Position numbers and translations under genes: made by a program. From an uncultured Clostridia bacterium (GTDB lineage: Bacteria; Bacillota; Clostridia; Christensenellales; UBA1242): a stretch of DNA of 64,000 bases. The stretch covers positions 36,142 through 100,141 of the forward strand of contig CAKVFH010000001.1 in NCBI GenBank assembly GCA_934746515.1, read 5' to 3'. Positions 22,480-29,161 of this stretch are shown piece by piece (position 1 is the first letter of the stretch; each line of letters starts with the position of its first letter). The notes below the pieces were generated by a model. The model was not told the origin of the DNA, did not search any database, and was given only the letters and a program-made list of their open reading frames with translations.

Positions 22480-24699
22480 ATGAGTTATTTGAGTGGGTTA
22501 GAAGAAGAATTAAACAAAAAACTATTTTGCGAGCCAGCAATTGACGACGGCTCTAATGATGACACTTCGAAATTTGAAGAAAATAGAACAGAGTTAGTAG
22601 ACAAACAGAGTAGTAAATTTGATGAAATTAAGCAAAATTCAAGACCAAGCATTTTGGAAAGCTGTCTTTTTCAGTGTAGCGAAAAAACCAAGAATTGTTT
22701 TTATTTTGAAAACCTGACAGATGACGAATTTTTCAGTGTTAGCGGTGCAAATGATCAGTTTGTGAGTTTTTATAAAACAATAACAAAATCTGGCGTTGGA
22801 AGCGTGATTTTAGGCGGAGTATATTTGGCATATAGACAAAAAATGCCAAACAATGTTGCTAGAATTACACTTGATGAAACAATCATGGATAAATATAAAC
22901 AAATCACGAAAAACGCCCATACAACAAATTGCAAAATATACTTAAAAGTAAAGTCTTGCTATGGACGATTTAATTCATTTAATCAGTACTCTCAAAGCCT
23001 AAAATTAGCGTCAAATTATGGCCTAGATCCATCAAATAAACAAAGACTTTTAATCAGAATAAGTGATAATAAATGCAACGAAATAATAAATGATTTGGCT
23101 CGAACTGTAATGCTTTCAAATATCGCAGGATTTGATGGAATAATGATTGATGCAACATTTGATAATATCATGGGGGAATTGTCATCACAAGAATTTAATA
23201 AACGAGTGTTTGGATATTTCTCTGATACAAACGATTTTTTAAAGAAAGCATTGATAAATATTGATGCTAAAAACAATAGGATTATTTTAAAGTTAAGTGT
23301 TTTATCATTGTTTTCTTATGAAAAAGAAAACGCAAATCTTTGCAAAATTTCTCGAAATTTTGATGAAAATAAGCTATTTAAAAACATAAAAGAATATATC
23401 AGTCTCGGAGTTGATGCTTTTGAATTTGAATTTGGCACGCCAAATAATGAATTTTTTAAACACTTTAACAGCTTTGAAGGAGATCTATTATTTAAAGGTT
23501 TTTACTCAAAACTTCGAAAAAAATTTGAAGAAGAAAATATTTTAAACAAATTTGGCGAACCTGTTGATTTTTTCTATCATGACAAGTTCACAGAGTTAAA
23601 AGAAGTTGAAAAAATGATAAAAACAAACATAGTTCAATTTGTTGATATAACAAGAAATTTGCTGTCTGATAACAATTATCTCAAAAATATAATAAATAAT
23701 AAAATTGCGCTAAATTGTATAAATTGCTCAAATTGTGATAAAAAAGCACAATTTAACCATAAAATTGAATGTTTAATAAATCCTAGTTTAAATGATAAAA
23801 TCAAATTCTGCAGTGAAAATAAAAATAAAAATGTTGCAATTATTGGCTCTGGTATTTCAGGACTAATATGCGCAATCACATTAGCTGAAAGGGGATTCAA
23901 TGTCCATTTGTTTGAACAAAAAGATGAGTTAAACCCAAACGGAAAAGCAACATGTATTTATGGATTTGATAAAACTCTTTTAAATTATTACAATCAAATT
24001 GAATCAAGAATAAACGAGCTTGCGAGCAATAAAATGATTGTAATTCACTTAAACACAAAATTCGATTATATCAAAGAAAATGAAAGAGAGTTTTATTCAA
24101 TCATTGTTGCCACTGGCTATAAAACAAAATTTCTATCAATATCTGGTGCTGTTCTTCCACATGTTCAAAATATTTATGATGTTTTGAAAAAAGAAAGCGC
24201 TTTTAAAAATAGAAAAAATATTGTCATTTATGCGAAGTCTTTACTTTCTTTAAAACTTGCATTATATCTTTCAACAAAGCAAAAGGTGACTGTTATTATA
24301 AAAAGTTTGGATGGTTTTAAAAATGAGAAAAACGCAAATCTTTTCTATTTTTTCTGGAATTTATATAAAAACAATGCTAATATCCATTTTTTATCAAGAA
24401 TTACAAAAATCAATGAAGACAATCTCGACTTGATTATTAATAAAAATTTCAATCCAAAAAGTATTAACACATTACTAAAACTGATGTCTAACGAAAAAAT
24501 ATCTTCTAGTCAAGTTCAAATAAACATTGACTGTGACTATTTAATTTATGAGCCAGATCTTATGCCAAATAATAGTCTATATGCCAGTGTTGTGAAACAA
24601 AATTATCCGGGTGAAGTTTATTTGATTGGCAACGCTCTTGAAAATTCAGATTTAGAAGACACAATCAAGTCTGGGTATTTTGTTGGCAAAAATTTGTAA
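22480..24699 (+). CDS. Divergent 2,4-dienoyl-CoA reductase (FadH)/NADH:flavin oxidoreductase-family protein (OYE-like barrel + 4-Cys cluster motif + FAD/NAD Rossmann domain)
   Basis: 739-aa ORF. It has the Cys motif CINCSNC-x11-CLINP, followed ~25 aa later by VAIIGSGISGLICAITLAERGFNVHLFE (GxGxxG + acidic end). The segment GFDGIMIDATFDNIM...RIILKLSVLSLF aligns by eye with the G[YF]DG[VI]E...RLS region of FadH/OYE enzymes. There is no Shine-Dalgarno sequence before the ATG. Confidence 0.6.
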   Translation: MSYLSGLEEELNKKLFCEPAIDDGSNDDTSKFEENRTELVDKQSSKFDEIKQNSRPSILESCLFQCSEKTKNCFYFENLTDDEFFSVSGANDQFVSFYKTITKSGVGSVILGGVYLAYRQKMPNNVARITLDETIMDKYKQITKNAHTTNCKIYLKVKSCYGRFNSFNQYSQSLKLASNYGLDPSNKQRLLIRISDNKCNEIINDLARTVMLSNIAGFDGIMIDATFDNIMGELSSQEFNKRVFGYFSDTNDFLKKALINIDAKNNRIILKLSVLSLFSYEKENANLCKISRNFDENKLFKNIKEYISLGVDAFEFEFGTPNNEFFKHFNSFEGDLLFKGFYSKLRKKFEEENILNKFGEPVDFFYHDKFTELKEVEKMIKTNIVQFVDITRNLLSDNNYLKNIINNKIALNCINCSNCDKKAQFNHKIECLINPSLNDKIKFCSENKNKNVAIIGSGISGLICAITLAERGFNVHLFEQKDELNPNGKATCIYGFDKTLLNYYNQIESRINELASNKMIVIHLNTKFDYIKENEREFYSIIVATGYKTKFLSISGAVLPHVQNIYDVLKKESAFKNRKNIVIYAKSLLSLKLALYLSTKQKVTVIIKSLDGFKNEKNANLFYFFWNLYKNNANIHFLSRITKINEDNLDLIINKNFNPKSINTLLKLMSNEKISSSQVQINIDCDYLIYEPDLMPNNSLYASVVKQNYPGEVYLIGNALENSDLEDTIKSGYFVGKNL

Positions 24700-24703
24700 A
24701 TGC

Positions 24704-24732
24704 TTGACAGAATTTTTAATGTAATATATAAT
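24704..24732 (+). promoter_or_regulatory. Consensus sigma-A (sigma-70) promoter for the cysS leader
   Basis: TTGACA (24704-24709), a 17-nt spacer, then TATAAT (24727-24732). Both hexamers match the consensus perfectly. Confidence 0.7.
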
Positions 24733-24755
24733 TTTCATATAAAGGAAATAAGTTT

Positions 24756-24779
24756 ATGAAAAAATGTTGTTGTAACTGA
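24756..24779 (+). CDS. Candidate leader peptide MKKCCCN (three consecutive Cys codons) upstream of cysS
   Basis: The ORF reads ATG AAA AAA TGT TGT TGT AAC TGA. An AAAGGA Shine-Dalgarno sequence lies 9 nt upstream (24741-24746). The ORF sits between the consensus promoter and an intrinsic terminator, directly in front of cysS. Confidence 0.5.
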   Translation: MKKCCCN

Positions 24780-24853
24780 ATATTATTTTAAACCTTAACA
24801 CTCTTAAGGTATTTTCAGTTATCTAATATTTTTTAAAGGTGAGTAGATAACTG
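24773..24853 (+). promoter_or_regulatory. Alternative RNA pairings of a putative attenuator (anti-antiterminator 1:2 and antiterminator 2:3)
   Basis: - Region 1, TAACTGA (24773-24779; last sense codon plus stop of the leader ORF), is complementary to TCAGTTA (24815-24821).
- Region 2, CAGTTATCTA (24816-24825), is perfectly complementary (10/10) to TAGATAACTG (24844-24853). That sequence spans the 5' arm, loop and 3' arm of the terminator.
- A local hairpin, ACCTTAA-cactc-TTAAGGT (24792-24810), lies between regions 1 and 2. Confidence 0.5.
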
Positions 24854-24868
24854 CTCATCTTTTATTTT
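24835..24868 (+). terminator. Intrinsic terminator (attenuator) 10 nt upstream of the cysS start
   Basis: The stem is AAAGGTGAGTAG / CTGCTCATCTTT around the loop ATAA (12 bp including two G-U pairs), followed by a TTTTATTTT run. The cysS SD (GGGGGA, 24870-24875) and ATG (24879) follow immediately. Confidence 0.7.
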
Positions 24869-24878
24869 CGGGGGAAAT

Positions 24879-26291
24879 ATGAATATTTACATTAACAATT
24901 CTTTATCAAGAAAAAAAGAGCTATTCAAACCAATTCACGAAGGCTTTGTTGGCATGTATGTTTGCGGTCCAACAGTTTATGGTCCACCACATGTTGGACA
25001 TGCTAGAAGCTATGTCAACTTTGATGTGATTAGAAGATTCTTTGAATATGCTGGATACAATATTAAATATGTTCAAAACATTACTGACGTTGGACATATT
25101 GTTGGCGATGTTGATGAAGGCGATGACAAAATTTTGTTGCAGGCGATGAAAGAAAATCTTGATCCTTATGCACTGGCATATAAATATGAGACAATTTATT
25201 TTGATGCTATGGACAAGCTTAACATTAAAAGGCCAACAATTTCAGTTCGTGCAACAGCTGTCATTCCTGAAATTATTGAAATGGTTCAAAAGATTATCGA
25301 CAAAGGCTACGCTTATGTCACCAAAGAAGGCAATGTTTATTTGGAACTATCAAAAGTTGATTCTTATGGAAAGTTGTCTGGCCGAAAGATTGAAAATGGT
25401 TTGTCAGGTGAAAGAATCACAATTGCGGACGATAAACGCAATCCTGAAGACTGCGCACTTTGGAAATCGGCTGTTGGTGGACATATTATGAAATGGAATT
25501 CACCATGGGGTTATGGTTATCCAGGCTGGCACATCGAATGTTCTGCTATCAGCAAAAAGTTTTTAGGCAACACTTTTGATATTCACGGCGGTGGACTAGA
25601 TAATATTTTCCCACACCACGAAACAGAAATTGCGCAGAGCGAAATTGCAAACGGTGTTCCTTTCGTAAACTATTTCATCCACAACAATCTTGTGACTGTA
25701 AATGGAACAAAAATGGGAAAGAGCCTTGGAAATTTTGTAACACTTAAAGATCTTTTTGAAAAATTTGATCCAATGGTTATAAGATTCTTTATCTTGCAAT
25801 TTCATTACAGAAAACCTGTTGACTTTTCTTTTGACCAAATCGAAAAAGCAAAAGATCAATATAAAAAGATAAATGAGAATTTTTCAAAAATCAAAGAAAT
25901 GGCGAAAGGTGAATACTTGGAAATTTCTGATAAATTGCTTTTGGAAATTAAAAACAATTTTGAACAAGCTATGTGTGACGACTTTAACACACCACTTGCA
26001 ATCGCTGAAGTTTTGAGATTATCTAAAGCTCTTGGACAAATTGAACAAGCTCAAGATGCACTGCTTGCTAAACAAGCAAATAATTTAGTAAAAATGGTTG
26101 AAGATGTTTTGGGTTTCGACTTTAAATCTGATATAATAAAAACAGAAACAACATCTAATGACGATAAACTGCTTGATTTACTCAATAGGGTTCGTGACAA
26201 ACTTCGCGCAAATAAGAACTTTGAACTTTCTGACTACATTCGCGATGAGCTTGCAAAATTGGATGTTACAATTAAAGATAAGAAAATTTAA
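24879..26291 (+). CDS. cysS: Cysteine--tRNA ligase
   Basis: 470 aa. Contains the class I HIGH motif (GPPHVGHARSY), KMSKS motif (KMGKSLGN), Zn-ligand context (YVCGPTVY, GWHIECS) and HGGGLDNIFPHHE. There is an NITDVGH...DEGDDKI insertion after the first Rossmann half. A GGGGGA SD precedes the start. Confidence 0.95.
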   Translation: MNIYINNSLSRKKELFKPIHEGFVGMYVCGPTVYGPPHVGHARSYVNFDVIRRFFEYAGYNIKYVQNITDVGHIVGDVDEGDDKILLQAMKENLDPYALAYKYETIYFDAMDKLNIKRPTISVRATAVIPEIIEMVQKIIDKGYAYVTKEGNVYLELSKVDSYGKLSGRKIENGLSGERITIADDKRNPEDCALWKSAVGGHIMKWNSPWGYGYPGWHIECSAISKKFLGNTFDIHGGGLDNIFPHHETEIAQSEIANGVPFVNYFIHNNLVTVNGTKMGKSLGNFVTLKDLFEKFDPMVIRFFILQFHYRKPVDFSFDQIEKAKDQYKKINENFSKIKEMAKGEYLEISDKLLLEIKNNFEQAMCDDFNTPLAIAEVLRLSKALGQIEQAQDALLAKQANNLVKMVEDVLGFDFKSDIIKTETTSNDDKLLDLLNRVRDKLRANKNFELSDYIRDELAKLDVTIKDKKI

Positions 26292-26302: not shown

Positions 26303-27037
26303 ATGGCATTTTACGATACTTTTGATGCAAATGGCGTTTTTATGTCAGCAGAAGATGAAGCTGATGTTCACTACAAAGGCTTATGGCACAAGGTTATAAG
26401 AGTTTGGCTTTATGACTTGCAGGGCAATATTTATTTGCGTGTAAAAAAACCAAGCAAAAAGTGCGATTTTATAAATGAACTTCACATTGAGTCAGGCGAA
26501 AGTGCGACAAGCTGTTTTGATAGGGGAATGTATGAGAAACTTGGAATTCACTTTCCAGCAACTTCAAACTTAATTCAAGTATGCAGCAAAAAAATTAAGA
26601 AACACAAAGTTTACTCTGATAATTCCGAGCTTAAAGATAACTACTTTTTGATTGATTATATTGGTGAGTTTGATGAAAGTACAAGTTTCTTTATTTTTAG
26701 TGATGACACCGACCACATTATAAAATGTAATGCAAAAGGTCTTTTGAATCTTGTTAAAAACAGAACTGGCGAGATATTGGCTTACAGAGTAGAACCAAAC
26801 GGCAAGGTTTCCGACCAAAAGGATTTCTTAAAAATCACTGATATTTATGAAGATGTCAACGAAGATTCTTACACAAAATATAGTTTCATTGTTAATGCAA
26901 TTGTAAATGAAGTTACAAAGGCAAATAAAGAAAAAATCGAAAATGAAAAAATTAGAAAACTTACTGAAAAAGTAAAGGAAAGAGAAGAAAAATTCAATTC
27001 TCATGCCGATGAAAATGAAGGCACAGATAAATATTAA
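26303..27037 (+). CDS. Nudix-fold-like protein with degenerate Nudix box and Lys/Glu-rich C-terminal tail
   Basis: 244 aa with an AGGTGG SD, starting 11 nt after the cysS stop. The N-terminus, HYKGLWHKVIRVWLYD...IYLRVKK, resembles the GLWHR...V.I pattern of Nudix/IDI-like proteins. The expected box reads GESATSCFDRGMYEKLG instead of G-x5-E-x7-REUxEExGU. Confidence 0.4.
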   Translation: MAFYDTFDANGVFMSAEDEADVHYKGLWHKVIRVWLYDLQGNIYLRVKKPSKKCDFINELHIESGESATSCFDRGMYEKLGIHFPATSNLIQVCSKKIKKHKVYSDNSELKDNYFLIDYIGEFDESTSFFIFSDDTDHIIKCNAKGLLNLVKNRTGEILAYRVEPNGKVSDQKDFLKITDIYEDVNEDSYTKYSFIVNAIVNEVTKANKEKIENEKIRKLTEKVKEREEKFNSHADENEGTDKY

Positions 27038-27106: not shown

Positions 27107-27192
27107 GCCGAAATGGCGAAATGGCAGACGCACAAGACTCAAAATCTTGCGAGGGCAACTTCATGTGGGTTCAAGTCCCACTTTCGGCACCA
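27107..27192 (+). tRNA. tRNA-Leu (anticodon CAA), class II with long variable arm, genomically encoded CCA
   Basis: Folded by hand:
- acceptor GCCGAAA / TTTCGGC (7 bp)
- D stem GCG / CGC with GG in the loop
- anticodon stem CAAGA / TCTTG with loop CU-CAA-AA
- 15-nt variable arm with a 4-bp stem
- T stem GTGGG / CCCAC with loop TTCAAGT
- discriminator A, then CCA. Confidence 0.9.
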
Positions 27193-27195
27193 TAT

Positions 27196-27253
27196 AACAC
27201 ATAATATTGTGTTTTTAAAACAATTTAACCACCAAATTATGGTGGTTTTTTTA
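27196..27253 (+). terminator. Tandem intrinsic terminators after tRNA-Leu
   Basis: Hairpin 1 is AACACA-taatat-TGTGTT followed by TTT (27196-27216). Hairpin 2 is AACCACCA-aatt-ATGGTGGTT followed by TTTTTT (27227-27253). Confidence 0.7.
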
Positions 27254-28447: not shown

Positions 28448-28475
28448 TTGACACAGATATAATTATATTTATAAT
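28448..28475 (+). promoter_or_regulatory. Consensus sigma-A promoter for the HAD hydrolase gene
   Basis: TTGACA (28448-28453), a 16-nt spacer, then TATAAT (28470-28475). A GAGGT SD and the ATG at 28493 follow. Confidence 0.65.
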
Positions 28476-28492: not shown

Positions 28493-29161
28493 ATGATTAA
28501 AGAATATAGCTTTGTTGACGAAATTGAAGCAGAGATTAAAAATGTTGTTTTTGACTATAATGGCGTGCTTGCAGGGATAAATAAAACTAGAGTTTTGAGC
28601 AAGGTGAATTTAAAAGATATTTGCAATGCAATCGGCTTTGGCTTTAGCTATTTAACAAAATCCGGGTTCCGCTGTGATGTTAAATATGCTTATCACGGGC
28701 TTACAAATGGAAGCGTTAGTTCAAAAGATATTTATGACATGTTTGAATCATATTTTCCACACAAAAGCGACACTGTGAAAAAAGTTTTCGATAATTTTGT
28801 CAATTCAATGTACACTAGAGAAGGAATGATTAGACTTGTTGATTATTTGAGAGAAAATCAATTTAGAGTTTTTGTTTTATCAAACACCATACCTGAAACC
28901 GCAAAAATTTTGAACTCTGAAGATGTTAAAAAACATTTTGATGGAATTTACTGCACATCTGAACACGGAATTCAAAAACCAGATATTGACACTTTTCTCG
29001 ACGCATGCAAAATTTGGAATATCAAACCTGAAGAATCGCTTTTTGTTGACGACAAAAAAGTGAATACGAAAGCAGCTGCGATGGCTGGTTTTGGTGATAC
29101 ATTTAATTCAAACAGCGAAAGAAAAATAAAAAACTACATCAACCAAGTTTATCTAGACTAA
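28493..29161 (+). CDS. HAD-superfamily hydrolase (subfamily IA-like)
   Basis: 222 aa. Motif I-like VVFDYNGVL, motif II VFVLSNT, motif III Lys in GIQKPD, motif IV LFVDDKKVNTKAA. A GAGGT SD is present. Confidence 0.75.
   Translation: MIKEYSFVDEIEAEIKNVVFDYNGVLAGINKTRVLSKVNLKDICNAIGFGFSYLTKSGFRCDVKYAYHGLTNGSVSSKDIYDMFESYFPHKSDTVKKVFDNFVNSMYTREGMIRLVDYLRENQFRVFVLSNTIPETAKILNSEDVKKHFDGIYCTSEHGIQKPDIDTFLDACKIWNIKPEESLFVDDKKVNTKAAAMAGFGDTFNSNSERKIKNYINQVYLD

Follow-up and report, generated by a model that had tools for sequence, protein, structure and literature searches.

The gene for cysteinyl-tRNA synthetase (CysRS), cysS, in a 64,000-nt stretch of DNA from an uncultured Clostridia bacterium (contig CAKVFH010000001.1; the whole stretch is hereafter called the window) is preceded by a short leader that is likely, as predicted from its sequence, to be a cysteine-specific transcription attenuator of the leader-peptide type, mediated by the ribosome. 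The host belongs to a low-GC (~33%) lineage of gut Clostridia. The leader encodes a tiny open reading frame (ORF) with three tandem Cys codons, and its transcript is predicted to adopt alternative folds: region 1, which takes in nearly the whole ORF, pairs with region 2 (the 1:2 helix or anti-antiterminator), or region 2 pairs with region 3 (the 2:3 helix or antiterminator), and region 3 is itself part of an intrinsic terminator placed before cysS. This interpretation was put forward in a preliminary description of the DNA and is supported by the computational analysis presented here, in which all the computational checks that it had suggested turned out in its favour.

Elements and alternative folds of the leader

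The leader elements (Table 1) were checked by direct reading of window positions 24400–25100. All those listed in the preliminary description, namely the promoter, the Shine-Dalgarno (SD) sequence, the ORF, the hairpin, CAGTTATCTA, the terminator and the SD and ATG of cysS, were recovered exactly where it had placed them. The promoter is one of just two perfect promoter sites between 22000 and 29000, and transcription would start at ~24739, ~7 nt past the -10 box. The ATG of the leader ORF, at 24756, follows this probable start by ~17 nt, which leaves a 5′ untranslated region (UTR) of ~17 nt.

Several features expected of a leader-peptide attenuator are present. The short ORF has its own SD and ATG right after the promoter, it carries consecutive codons for cysteine, the cognate amino acid, ahead of cysS, and an intrinsic terminator lies between it and cysS. 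In addition, the predicted anti-antiterminator overlaps the ORF (24759–83 with 24811–34), and the antiterminator overlaps both arms and the loop of the terminator, so that antiterminator and terminator are mutually exclusive. Here, region 3 runs from the upper part of the left arm of the terminator hairpin across its loop into the upper part of the right arm. The complementarity on which the antiterminator depends, CAGTTATCTA (24816–24825) with TAGATAACTG (24844–24853), is as complete as had been claimed, 10 of 10 positions forming Watson-Crick pairs.

The leader RNA folds with a predicted energy of -36.2 kcal/mol (z = -4.5), and none of 200 shuffled sequences folded equally well. The pairing between the ORF and region 2 is present as described, but it is far more extensive than the 7 nt first noticed: the minimum free energy (MFE) structure contains ~22 bp, joining 24759–24783 with 24811–24834 and involving nearly the whole ORF. 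In this structure, the 1:2 helix encloses a small hairpin that lies between regions 1 and 2 (the mid hairpin) and stacks directly onto the terminator. The predicted energy of the 1:2 helix with the mid hairpin is -19.2 kcal/mol, and that of the antiterminator is -9.2 kcal/mol.

The preliminary description saw no T-box, and this was borne out: an Rfam cmscan of the whole window at the gathering score matches only a tRNA (tRNA-Leu). The same search of 24500–25000 at E ≤ 10 returned three chance matches and no T-box (RF00230), riboswitch or leader family; the Trp, His, Leu, Thr, Phe and Leu/Phe leader families had no match at this threshold. In addition, the probable start is separated from cysS by ~140 nt, which is too short for a T-box. 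To say that the leader stands "instead of a T-box" is fair as a description, but the nearest outgroups (L010–L014, CysS 54–60% identical) have neither, as there is no such leader upstream of their cysS and no room for a T-box.

How readily such an arrangement could arise by chance was gauged within the window. When the upstream part was shuffled with its dinucleotides preserved, 4 of 5000 sequences contained a perfect complement of at least 10 nt to the terminator hairpin. Cysteine accounts for 0.67% of the 20,804 codons in the large ORFs of the window, in which the Cys-Cys dipeptide does not occur at all. As a plain string, TGYTGYTGY is not rare, with 19 copies on both strands where 9 are expected; the leader copy is the sole intergenic one. 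Judged from sequence, the decisive evidence against chance is the conservation of the leader in relatives.

Conservation in related gut Clostridia

Upstream regions of cysS were fetched by protein identity, blind to the motif. The regions came from 26 sources, the window and 25 loci in metagenome-assembled genomes (MAGs) of related gut Clostridia with CysS proteins 67–90% identical, and comprised 20 distinct leaders. The nearest species-representative genomes, MAGs from human, goat, roe-deer and mouse gut, have CysS identities of 67–73%, and the CysS relatives in the protein database form a continuum from 69% to 100%. In every one of the 26 sources, the leader lies directly upstream of cysS.

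All 20 leaders have in common the promoter, SD, ATG, mid hairpin, TTTC(A/G)GTT(A/G)TC, GTAGATAACT(G/A)CTCA and the T-tract. The -35 hexamer is TTGACA in 19 and TTGACT in L092, the -10 hexamer is TATAAT or TATACT, and their positions are unchanged in all relatives, each of which also has an SD-like AAGGA, GAGGA or TAGGTA within ~16 nt 5′ of the ATG. The mini-ORF and its Cys run, on whose persistence the proposal depended, are kept: three consecutive Cys codons occur in 19 of the 20 leaders. The form M-x-x-(x)-C-C-C-N-stop is found in 18, with the prefixes MKK, MLKI, MQKL, MKKM and MQNK, and the consensus M(K/L/Q/E)(K/N)(-/I/L/M/K)CCCN, in which MEKL joins the prefixes, fits 19. Changes in ORF length are each of 3 nt and all in frame. 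Substitutions within CCCN are confined to third positions and are synonymous, with TGT or TGC at each Cys codon and AAC or AAT for Asn.

Identity of the core to the window sequence is 0.87–1.0 in 17 of the 18 relatives measured and 0.73 in L009. In the same comparison, the fourfold-degenerate sites of cysS are 0.43–0.62 identical (saturated, ~50%), and spacers 0.5–0.8. These values bear on the simplest alternative, that of a constitutive, leaky terminator or insulator that does not switch and in which the ORF and the complementarities are fortuitous. An AT-rich genome makes A/U-rich complementarity easy and the TGYTGYTGY string recurs in the window, but such an explanation has only a very slight probability, since the core is 73–100% identical while neutral sites are saturated and the perfect 10-mer complement is so seldom reproduced by shuffling. 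Moreover, this terminator sits between a strong promoter and an essential gene, and the sequence of its loop is invariant.

The mid hairpin is found in all 20 leaders, with CCTT/AAGG invariant and the loop and stem length variable; in the 19 leaders measured it starts 9–13 nt (usually 12) past the stop and ends 5–6 nt before CAGTT. The terminator is kept in all relatives with coordinated changes at the base of its stem, and its ATAA loop is invariant, although terminator loops normally drift. TTTC(A/G)GTT(A/G)TC is present in 19 of 19 sequences of the alignment used for folding (A2). The spacing between regions 2 and 3 varies among relatives from 11 to 24 nt, which is in keeping with the loop of an RNA hairpin but not with a DNA operator. 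The inverted repeat CAGTTRTCTA ... TAGATAACTG had to be considered as an operator for a dimeric cysS repressor, as it is a perfect, highly conserved 10-bp repeat downstream of the promoter. This candidate was rejected and retains barely any probability: half-site distances that range over 11–24 bp are at odds with a fixed dimer, one of the half-sites forms part of a canonical terminator hairpin that leads into a T-tract, and the changes compatible with G·U pairing (A/G opposite T) make sense in RNA only.

A covariance model built from 19 sequences scores 68–130 bits and finds exactly one site per locus in the clade, always just upstream of cysS. Scanning with this model gave nothing in the other 70 of 96 loci, and in the 64-kb window it found only the site at cysS; weak matches on the minus strand correspond to the terminator palindrome. 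A DNA-pattern scan of metagenome contigs for further copies, or for other genes with the motif, returned no match, although the pattern fits L085 (JGI sample 3300006217), a record that the collection apparently lacks; a second such scan returned one chance match inside unrelated sequence (L088), and these scans say little. The loci from other phyla (Scalindua, Balneolales, Chlorobi, Bacteroidales and others) were also inspected for Cys-rich mini-ORFs ahead of cysS; those seen were scattered and non-conserved (e.g. L036, L025) and were taken as chance. In L036 (Halalkalibaculum sp., Balneolales), a small ORF containing three consecutive Cys, VFRNGNYVFVCCCFQTQFYQR, lies ~267 nt upstream of cysS and is probably a chance occurrence; the other Balneolales loci have no ORF with three, and only L028 has a short ORF with two.

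The alternative folds were examined systematically in 19 sequences, both for the free leader and for a transcript that stops at region 3 and has the ORF and the next 6 nt masked. Constraint folding reproduced the proposed switch throughout. The free, full-length leader is predicted to form the 1:2 helix around the mid hairpin together with the terminator in 19 of 19 sequences, and the masked, shortened transcript is predicted to form the 10-bp antiterminator, again in 19 of 19. RNAalifold independently recovers the 1:2 helix and the terminator, with the core of the former at 24772–24780 : 24814–24822. In all three helices, 98% of alignment cells are paired (98.4% for the antiterminator), and this falls to 20–54% when the partners are slid by 1–3 columns.

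The clearest covariation is between the third base of the third Cys codon and the R of TCAGTTR, which are C-G in nine sequences, U-G in seven and U-A in three, with no C·A. In addition, an A-to-G change in region 2 of L092 and a C-to-T change in region 1 of L004 and L094 each yield a G·U pair. Compensatory changes in the stems, for which the preliminary description had proposed to look, do exist but are few: two double-sided pairs in the 1:2 helix and terminator, or four when the stem base extended by RNAalifold is included, and the antiterminator has none. As the helices are nearly invariant, covariation statistics are little informative. The predicted antiterminator instead rests on conservation, including that of the terminator loop, on thermodynamics and on wobble-compatible changes, and no support from covariation is claimed for it.

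Near-invariance of this kind is also what a binding site would display, and regions 2–4 are almost invariant. A structured leader that works independently of the ribosome was therefore weighed, in which a protein or small ligand stabilises one hairpin and the mini-ORF is incidental or serves merely as region 1; the position of the Cys codons inside a helix means that constraint on the RNA could help to conserve them. The probability of such a leader is nevertheless small. Near-invariance is expected where each segment must pair with two partners, one of which is also coding, and the RNA offers only simple hairpins, with neither junction nor pocket, and no Rfam match at E ≤ 10. Furthermore, the leaders keep a correctly spaced SD and ATG, insertions and deletions in the ORF all come in multiples of 3, and the substitutions in CCCN are all synonymous, including those at two sites outside the RNAalifold helices (Cys1 in L002 and Cys2 in L001).

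Proposed mechanism and the evidence for and against it

From the sequence elements, their conservation and the predicted alternative folds, all shown above, we infer translation of the ORF, ribosome stalling, the kinetic order of folding and a polymerase pause. The first 130 nt of the transcript would encode the 7-codon ORF, whose codons 2–7 and stop would form the 5′ strand of the helix with region 2. When Cys-tRNA(Cys) is ample, the ribosome would read the ORF in well under a second and leave at the UGA, and region 1 would capture region 2 as it emerges. Region 3, now free, and region 4 would form the 12-bp terminator, and most transcripts would stop near 24868. If Cys-tRNA(Cys) runs short, the ribosome would stall with one of the three UGU codons (codons 4–6) in its A site. 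Its footprint would cover the whole ORF and the stop, making region 1 unavailable, and region 2 would pair with region 3 over 10 bp before region 4 exists, leaving no terminator. RNA polymerase would then read into cysS and probably also into the gene downstream, which encodes a 244-aa protein. The decision would be kinetic, the terminator being intrinsically more stable than the antiterminator.

The mid hairpin plausibly pauses RNA polymerase and lets translation catch up, with region 2 still inside the polymerase meanwhile. The hairpin and the T-rich stretch that follows suggest a polymerase pause site. TTNTTT, a NusG-type pause motif (PMC11602163), occurs after the mid hairpin in ~11 of 19 leaders as counted by eye, which is suggestive only.

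The preliminary description had cautioned that region 2 lies ~36 nt past the stop codon. This distance is real (34–36 nt), but it carries less weight than was supposed: as the ORF itself serves as region 1, termination would depend on the ribosome leaving the ORF rather than on region 2 being masked. Since region 1 is also masked by a ribosome that rests at the stop, basal read-through should be appreciable, which should suit an essential gene such as cysS.

Natural variants support reading by a ribosome. In L096 and L097 (CysS 70% identical), the ORF has lost its TGA and continues across the mid hairpin, reading MEKLCCCNLICIATLI and then stop (in L096, 16 aa at 1378–1428). The three Cys codons are kept, and the stop of L096 lies 9 nt before region 2 (CAGTT), which is the classical trp geometry, with the terminating ribosome masking region 2. 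Here, a new 1:2 pairing of 8 bp, UGGAAAAG:CUUUUCCA, takes the place of AACUGA:UCAGUU, which is lost. In L009 (CysS 67% identical), region 1 is relocated to AUUAGACA, which pairs with UGUCUAAU. As the Cys run and a region-1 partner are both maintained by different solutions, a switch read by the ribosome is favoured over a fixed RNA motif or protein-binding site.

Several points weigh against the proposed attenuator. In a number of relatives, the free nascent RNA is predicted to favour the 2:3 helix over the 1:2 helix by 1–6 kcal/mol, and termination in these would depend on the order of folding. In the window, the full-length RNA with its ORF masked still favours the terminator, at -20.2 versus -14.9 kcal/mol (with the mid hairpin), and therefore read-through would need kinetic trapping, as in the trp attenuator. 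Because a ribosome paused at the stop masks region 1 as well, repression requires fast release, and a stalled ribosome that carries just fMet-Lys-Lys may be prone to peptidyl-tRNA drop-off. In addition, true compensatory covariation is minimal, with none double-sided in the antiterminator, and since the Cys codons lie in region 1, their conservation cannot be fully separated from that of RNA pairing. Finally, the ORF of L009, MIRHCYLY followed by a stop (~2877–2903), contains one Cys codon only.

The last of these points, together with the coincidence of region 1 and the ORF, raises the question of whether charging of tRNA-Cys is what the leader senses. A translation-coupled attenuator of the ermC or pyrBI type could respond to general translation capacity, with the Cys run secondary: any slow ribosome, even one at the stop, would favour the antiterminator, and L009 works with at most one Cys codon. 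This is improbable. The three Cys codons persist in 19 of 20 leaders while other codons and the length of the ORF change, and they survive the remodelling of L096; the downstream gene is always cysS; and cysteine is otherwise very rare in proteins of the window. The cysteine-specific attenuator thus remains the favoured explanation.

Genomic surroundings and relation to known systems

The cysS gene is followed after 11 nt by a conserved ORF of 244 aa that is probably co-transcribed with it and so under the same attenuator. Its protein has 138 homologues in a database of 5.8 billion protein sequences, all of them unannotated Clostridia MAG proteins, and no match in Pfam or NCBIfam. The AlphaFold2 model (pLDDT 87) has a long C-terminal helix and is matched by Foldseek to isopentenyl diphosphate isomerase and Nudix hydrolases (E ~1e-7, TM ~0.45–0.6), and the protein is, on this modelled structure, a lineage-restricted orphan with a divergent, Nudix-like fold. 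A link between this gene and cysteine was sought and none was found. The hairpin that follows tRNA-Leu(CAA), downstream of the pair, may mark the end of the transcription unit.

On the other side of the leader, a gene for a flavoenzyme always adjoins it in the clade. In NCBIfam, this enzyme comes closest, though in each case far below cut-off, to long-form bilirubin reductase, a mycofactocin-system FadH/OYE oxidoreductase and BaiCD. Two giant ORFs, both of which approach the ends of the window, fill most of it, at 37–22374 (plus strand, at least 7,445 aa) and 32231–63961 (minus strand, at least 10,576 aa). A Pfam scan over 7,445 aa of the former, the only one scanned, gave just a sub-threshold Flg_new match (Listeria-Bacteroides repeat), and in relatives the corresponding place ahead of the flavoenzyme gene is taken by ORFs of 4,349–13,836 aa.

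Table 1. Features of the cysS leader and its surroundings, in window coordinates.
Feature	Position	Strand	Details
OYE/FadH-type flavoenzyme	22480–24699	+	739 aa; Oxidored_FMN and Pyr_redox_2; ends 4 nt before the -35 box
Sigma-70-type promoter	24704–24732	+	TTGACA 24704–24709, 17-nt spacer, TATAAT 24727–24732; 12/12 match
Leader-ORF SD	24741–24746	+	AAAGGA; ATG 9 nt further on
Leader ORF	24756–24779	+	MKKCCCN, stop; ATG AAA AAA TGT TGT TGT AAC TGA; 7 codons and TGA; direct reading
Region 1, 5′ strand of predicted anti-antiterminator	24759–24783	+	ORF codons 2–7, stop and 4 nt more; MFE fold
Tandem Cys codons, proposed sensing codons	24765–24773	+	TGT TGT TGT; only synonymous TGT/TGC change across 19 leaders
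Mid hairpin	24792–24810	+	ACCTTAA / TTAAGGT, loop CACTC; 7 bp; -5.7 kcal/mol
Region 2	24811–24834	+	Partner of region 1 or, via core CAGTTATCTA (24816–24825), of region 3; folding
Intrinsic terminator (putative attenuator)	24835–24868	+	12-bp stem 24835–24846 / 24851–24862, loop ATAA, T-rich tail to 24868; -14.5 kcal/mol
Region 3	24844–24853	+	TAGATAACTG; predicted antiterminator partner of 24816–24825; 10/10 complementarity
cysS SD	24870–24875	+	GGGGGA; direct reading; outside every predicted helix
cysS, cysteinyl-tRNA synthetase	24879–26291	+	470 aa; ATG 24879; Pfam tRNA-synt_1e (E 1e-113) and DALR_2
Conserved 244-aa ORF	26303–27037	+	11 nt 3′ of cysS; syntenic in all relatives
tRNA-Leu(CAA), then symmetric hairpin	27107–27247	+	Hairpin 27227–27247, read as a terminator on both strands; directly 3′ of the cysS-orf244 pair
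Second perfect promoter	28448–28475	+	TTGACA, 16-nt spacer, TATAAT; 12/12; 18 nt upstream of haloacid dehalogenase (HAD)-family hydrolase gene 28493–29161

In its general plan, the Clostridia leader resembles the enterobacterial leaders trpL, hisL, pheL, leuL, thrL and ilvL, which have a promoter-proximal ORF with cognate codons, 1:2, 2:3 and 3:4 helices and an intrinsic terminator before the structural gene. The trp attenuator is governed by kinetic competition, its 3:4 helix being more stable than 2:3, and the same order of stability is predicted in the Clostridia leader. Attenuation of an aminoacyl-tRNA synthetase (aaRS) operon has a precedent in pheM-pheST. In contrast to the enterobacterial leaders, the Clostridia ORF is much shorter, a separate small hairpin stands between regions 1 and 2, and the stop lies mostly in region 1, 34–36 nt before region 2, with only L096 being trp-like. 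As the terminating ribosome does not mask region 2 in most members, repression in these would depend on ribosome release.

Leaders with Cys codons have been predicted upstream of cysS in other phyla. The uORFC-8-2 element of Rhodobacterales is a predicted attenuator with a Cys-codon upstream ORF (uORF), known from 145 examples with two Cys codons at positions 14–15 (Brewer et al. 2021, PMC8632094). Both it and the Clostridia leader are comparative predictions and would regulate cysS, and in both an intrinsic terminator comes after a uORF whose tandem Cys codons lie in the first stem. Unlike the Clostridia leader, uORFC-8-2 belongs to an alphaproteobacterial, GC-rich host and has two prominent stems, its two Cys codons being mostly UGC and usually at positions 14–15 of a longer peptide. 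In the Clostridia, the peptide has 7–8 residues with three Cys at positions 4–6 or 5–7, and three helices, a stop inside region 1, an extra mid hairpin and a low-GC host set the leader apart. No sequence relationship to uORFC-8-2, as defined by its published description, was detectable and no Rfam model matched; the origins of the two are presumably independent. In Deinococcus deserti, a 10-aa leader peptide with two Cys at the 5′ end of the cysS mRNA was proposed to act as a transcription attenuator (de Groot et al. 2014, PMC4007540). It differs in its leaderless mRNA, two Cys and phylum, and there is no common structural model.

More distant parallels concern other genes or other sensors. 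The polycysteine, leaderless small ORFs (sORFs) of mycobacteria, the "Cys ribulon", have been validated by experiment as translational attenuators (Canestrari et al., bioRxiv 10.1101/834739), in which stalling in the poly-Cys tract senses cysteine supply and raises downstream expression, as is proposed here. However, these unmask a downstream ribosome-binding site and regulate cysteine metabolic operons, not cysS. The Clostridia leader is not of this type, having an SD, a ~17-nt 5′ UTR, a U-tract terminator and a cysS SD that lies outside the predicted helices. In bacilli, hisS paralogues and hisZ are preceded by "regular" His leader peptides in place of T-boxes (Naville and Gautheret 2010, PMC2965389), and these are a Firmicutes precedent for leader peptides at genes controlled by T-boxes elsewhere, while amino acid, gene, lineage and sequences differ. 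T-boxes themselves (RF00230; e.g. upstream of cysE-cysS in Bacillus) likewise translate uncharged tRNA-Cys into more CysRS through a choice of terminator or antiterminator, but their sensor is an RNA of ~200 nt or more that binds the tRNA directly.

No report of this Clostridia cysS leader was found in the literature. Control of cysS by a Cys-codon leader is not new in kind, having already been predicted in Rhodobacterales and Deinococcus, and no new regulatory principle is revealed. A bolder reading can be framed, in which this is the most compact amino-acid-sensing leader known, with 7 codons and its stop inside region 1, and relies on a release-dependent logic and a dedicated pause hairpin in place of masking of region 2. 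Its family would record the interconversion of architectures (trp-like in L096, one Cys codon in L009), and leader-peptide sensors might extend across the lineage of small-genome, uncultured gut Clostridia, as a "Cys ribulon" or by replacing T-boxes generally; this reading is rather unlikely. What the leader adds is a case of leader-peptide attenuation that is well supported and phylogenetically distinct, in a group, the Firmicutes, for which leaders of this type are considered rare and T-boxes are the normal control of aaRS genes. Control of cysS by Cys codons would then have had independent origins in at least three phyla. The small size of the leader (~130 nt, 7 codons) and the variants with a moved stop or region 1 make it convenient for testing ribosome position, release and polymerase pausing, and the covariance model lets annotators mark an uncharacterised leader in common gut MAGs.

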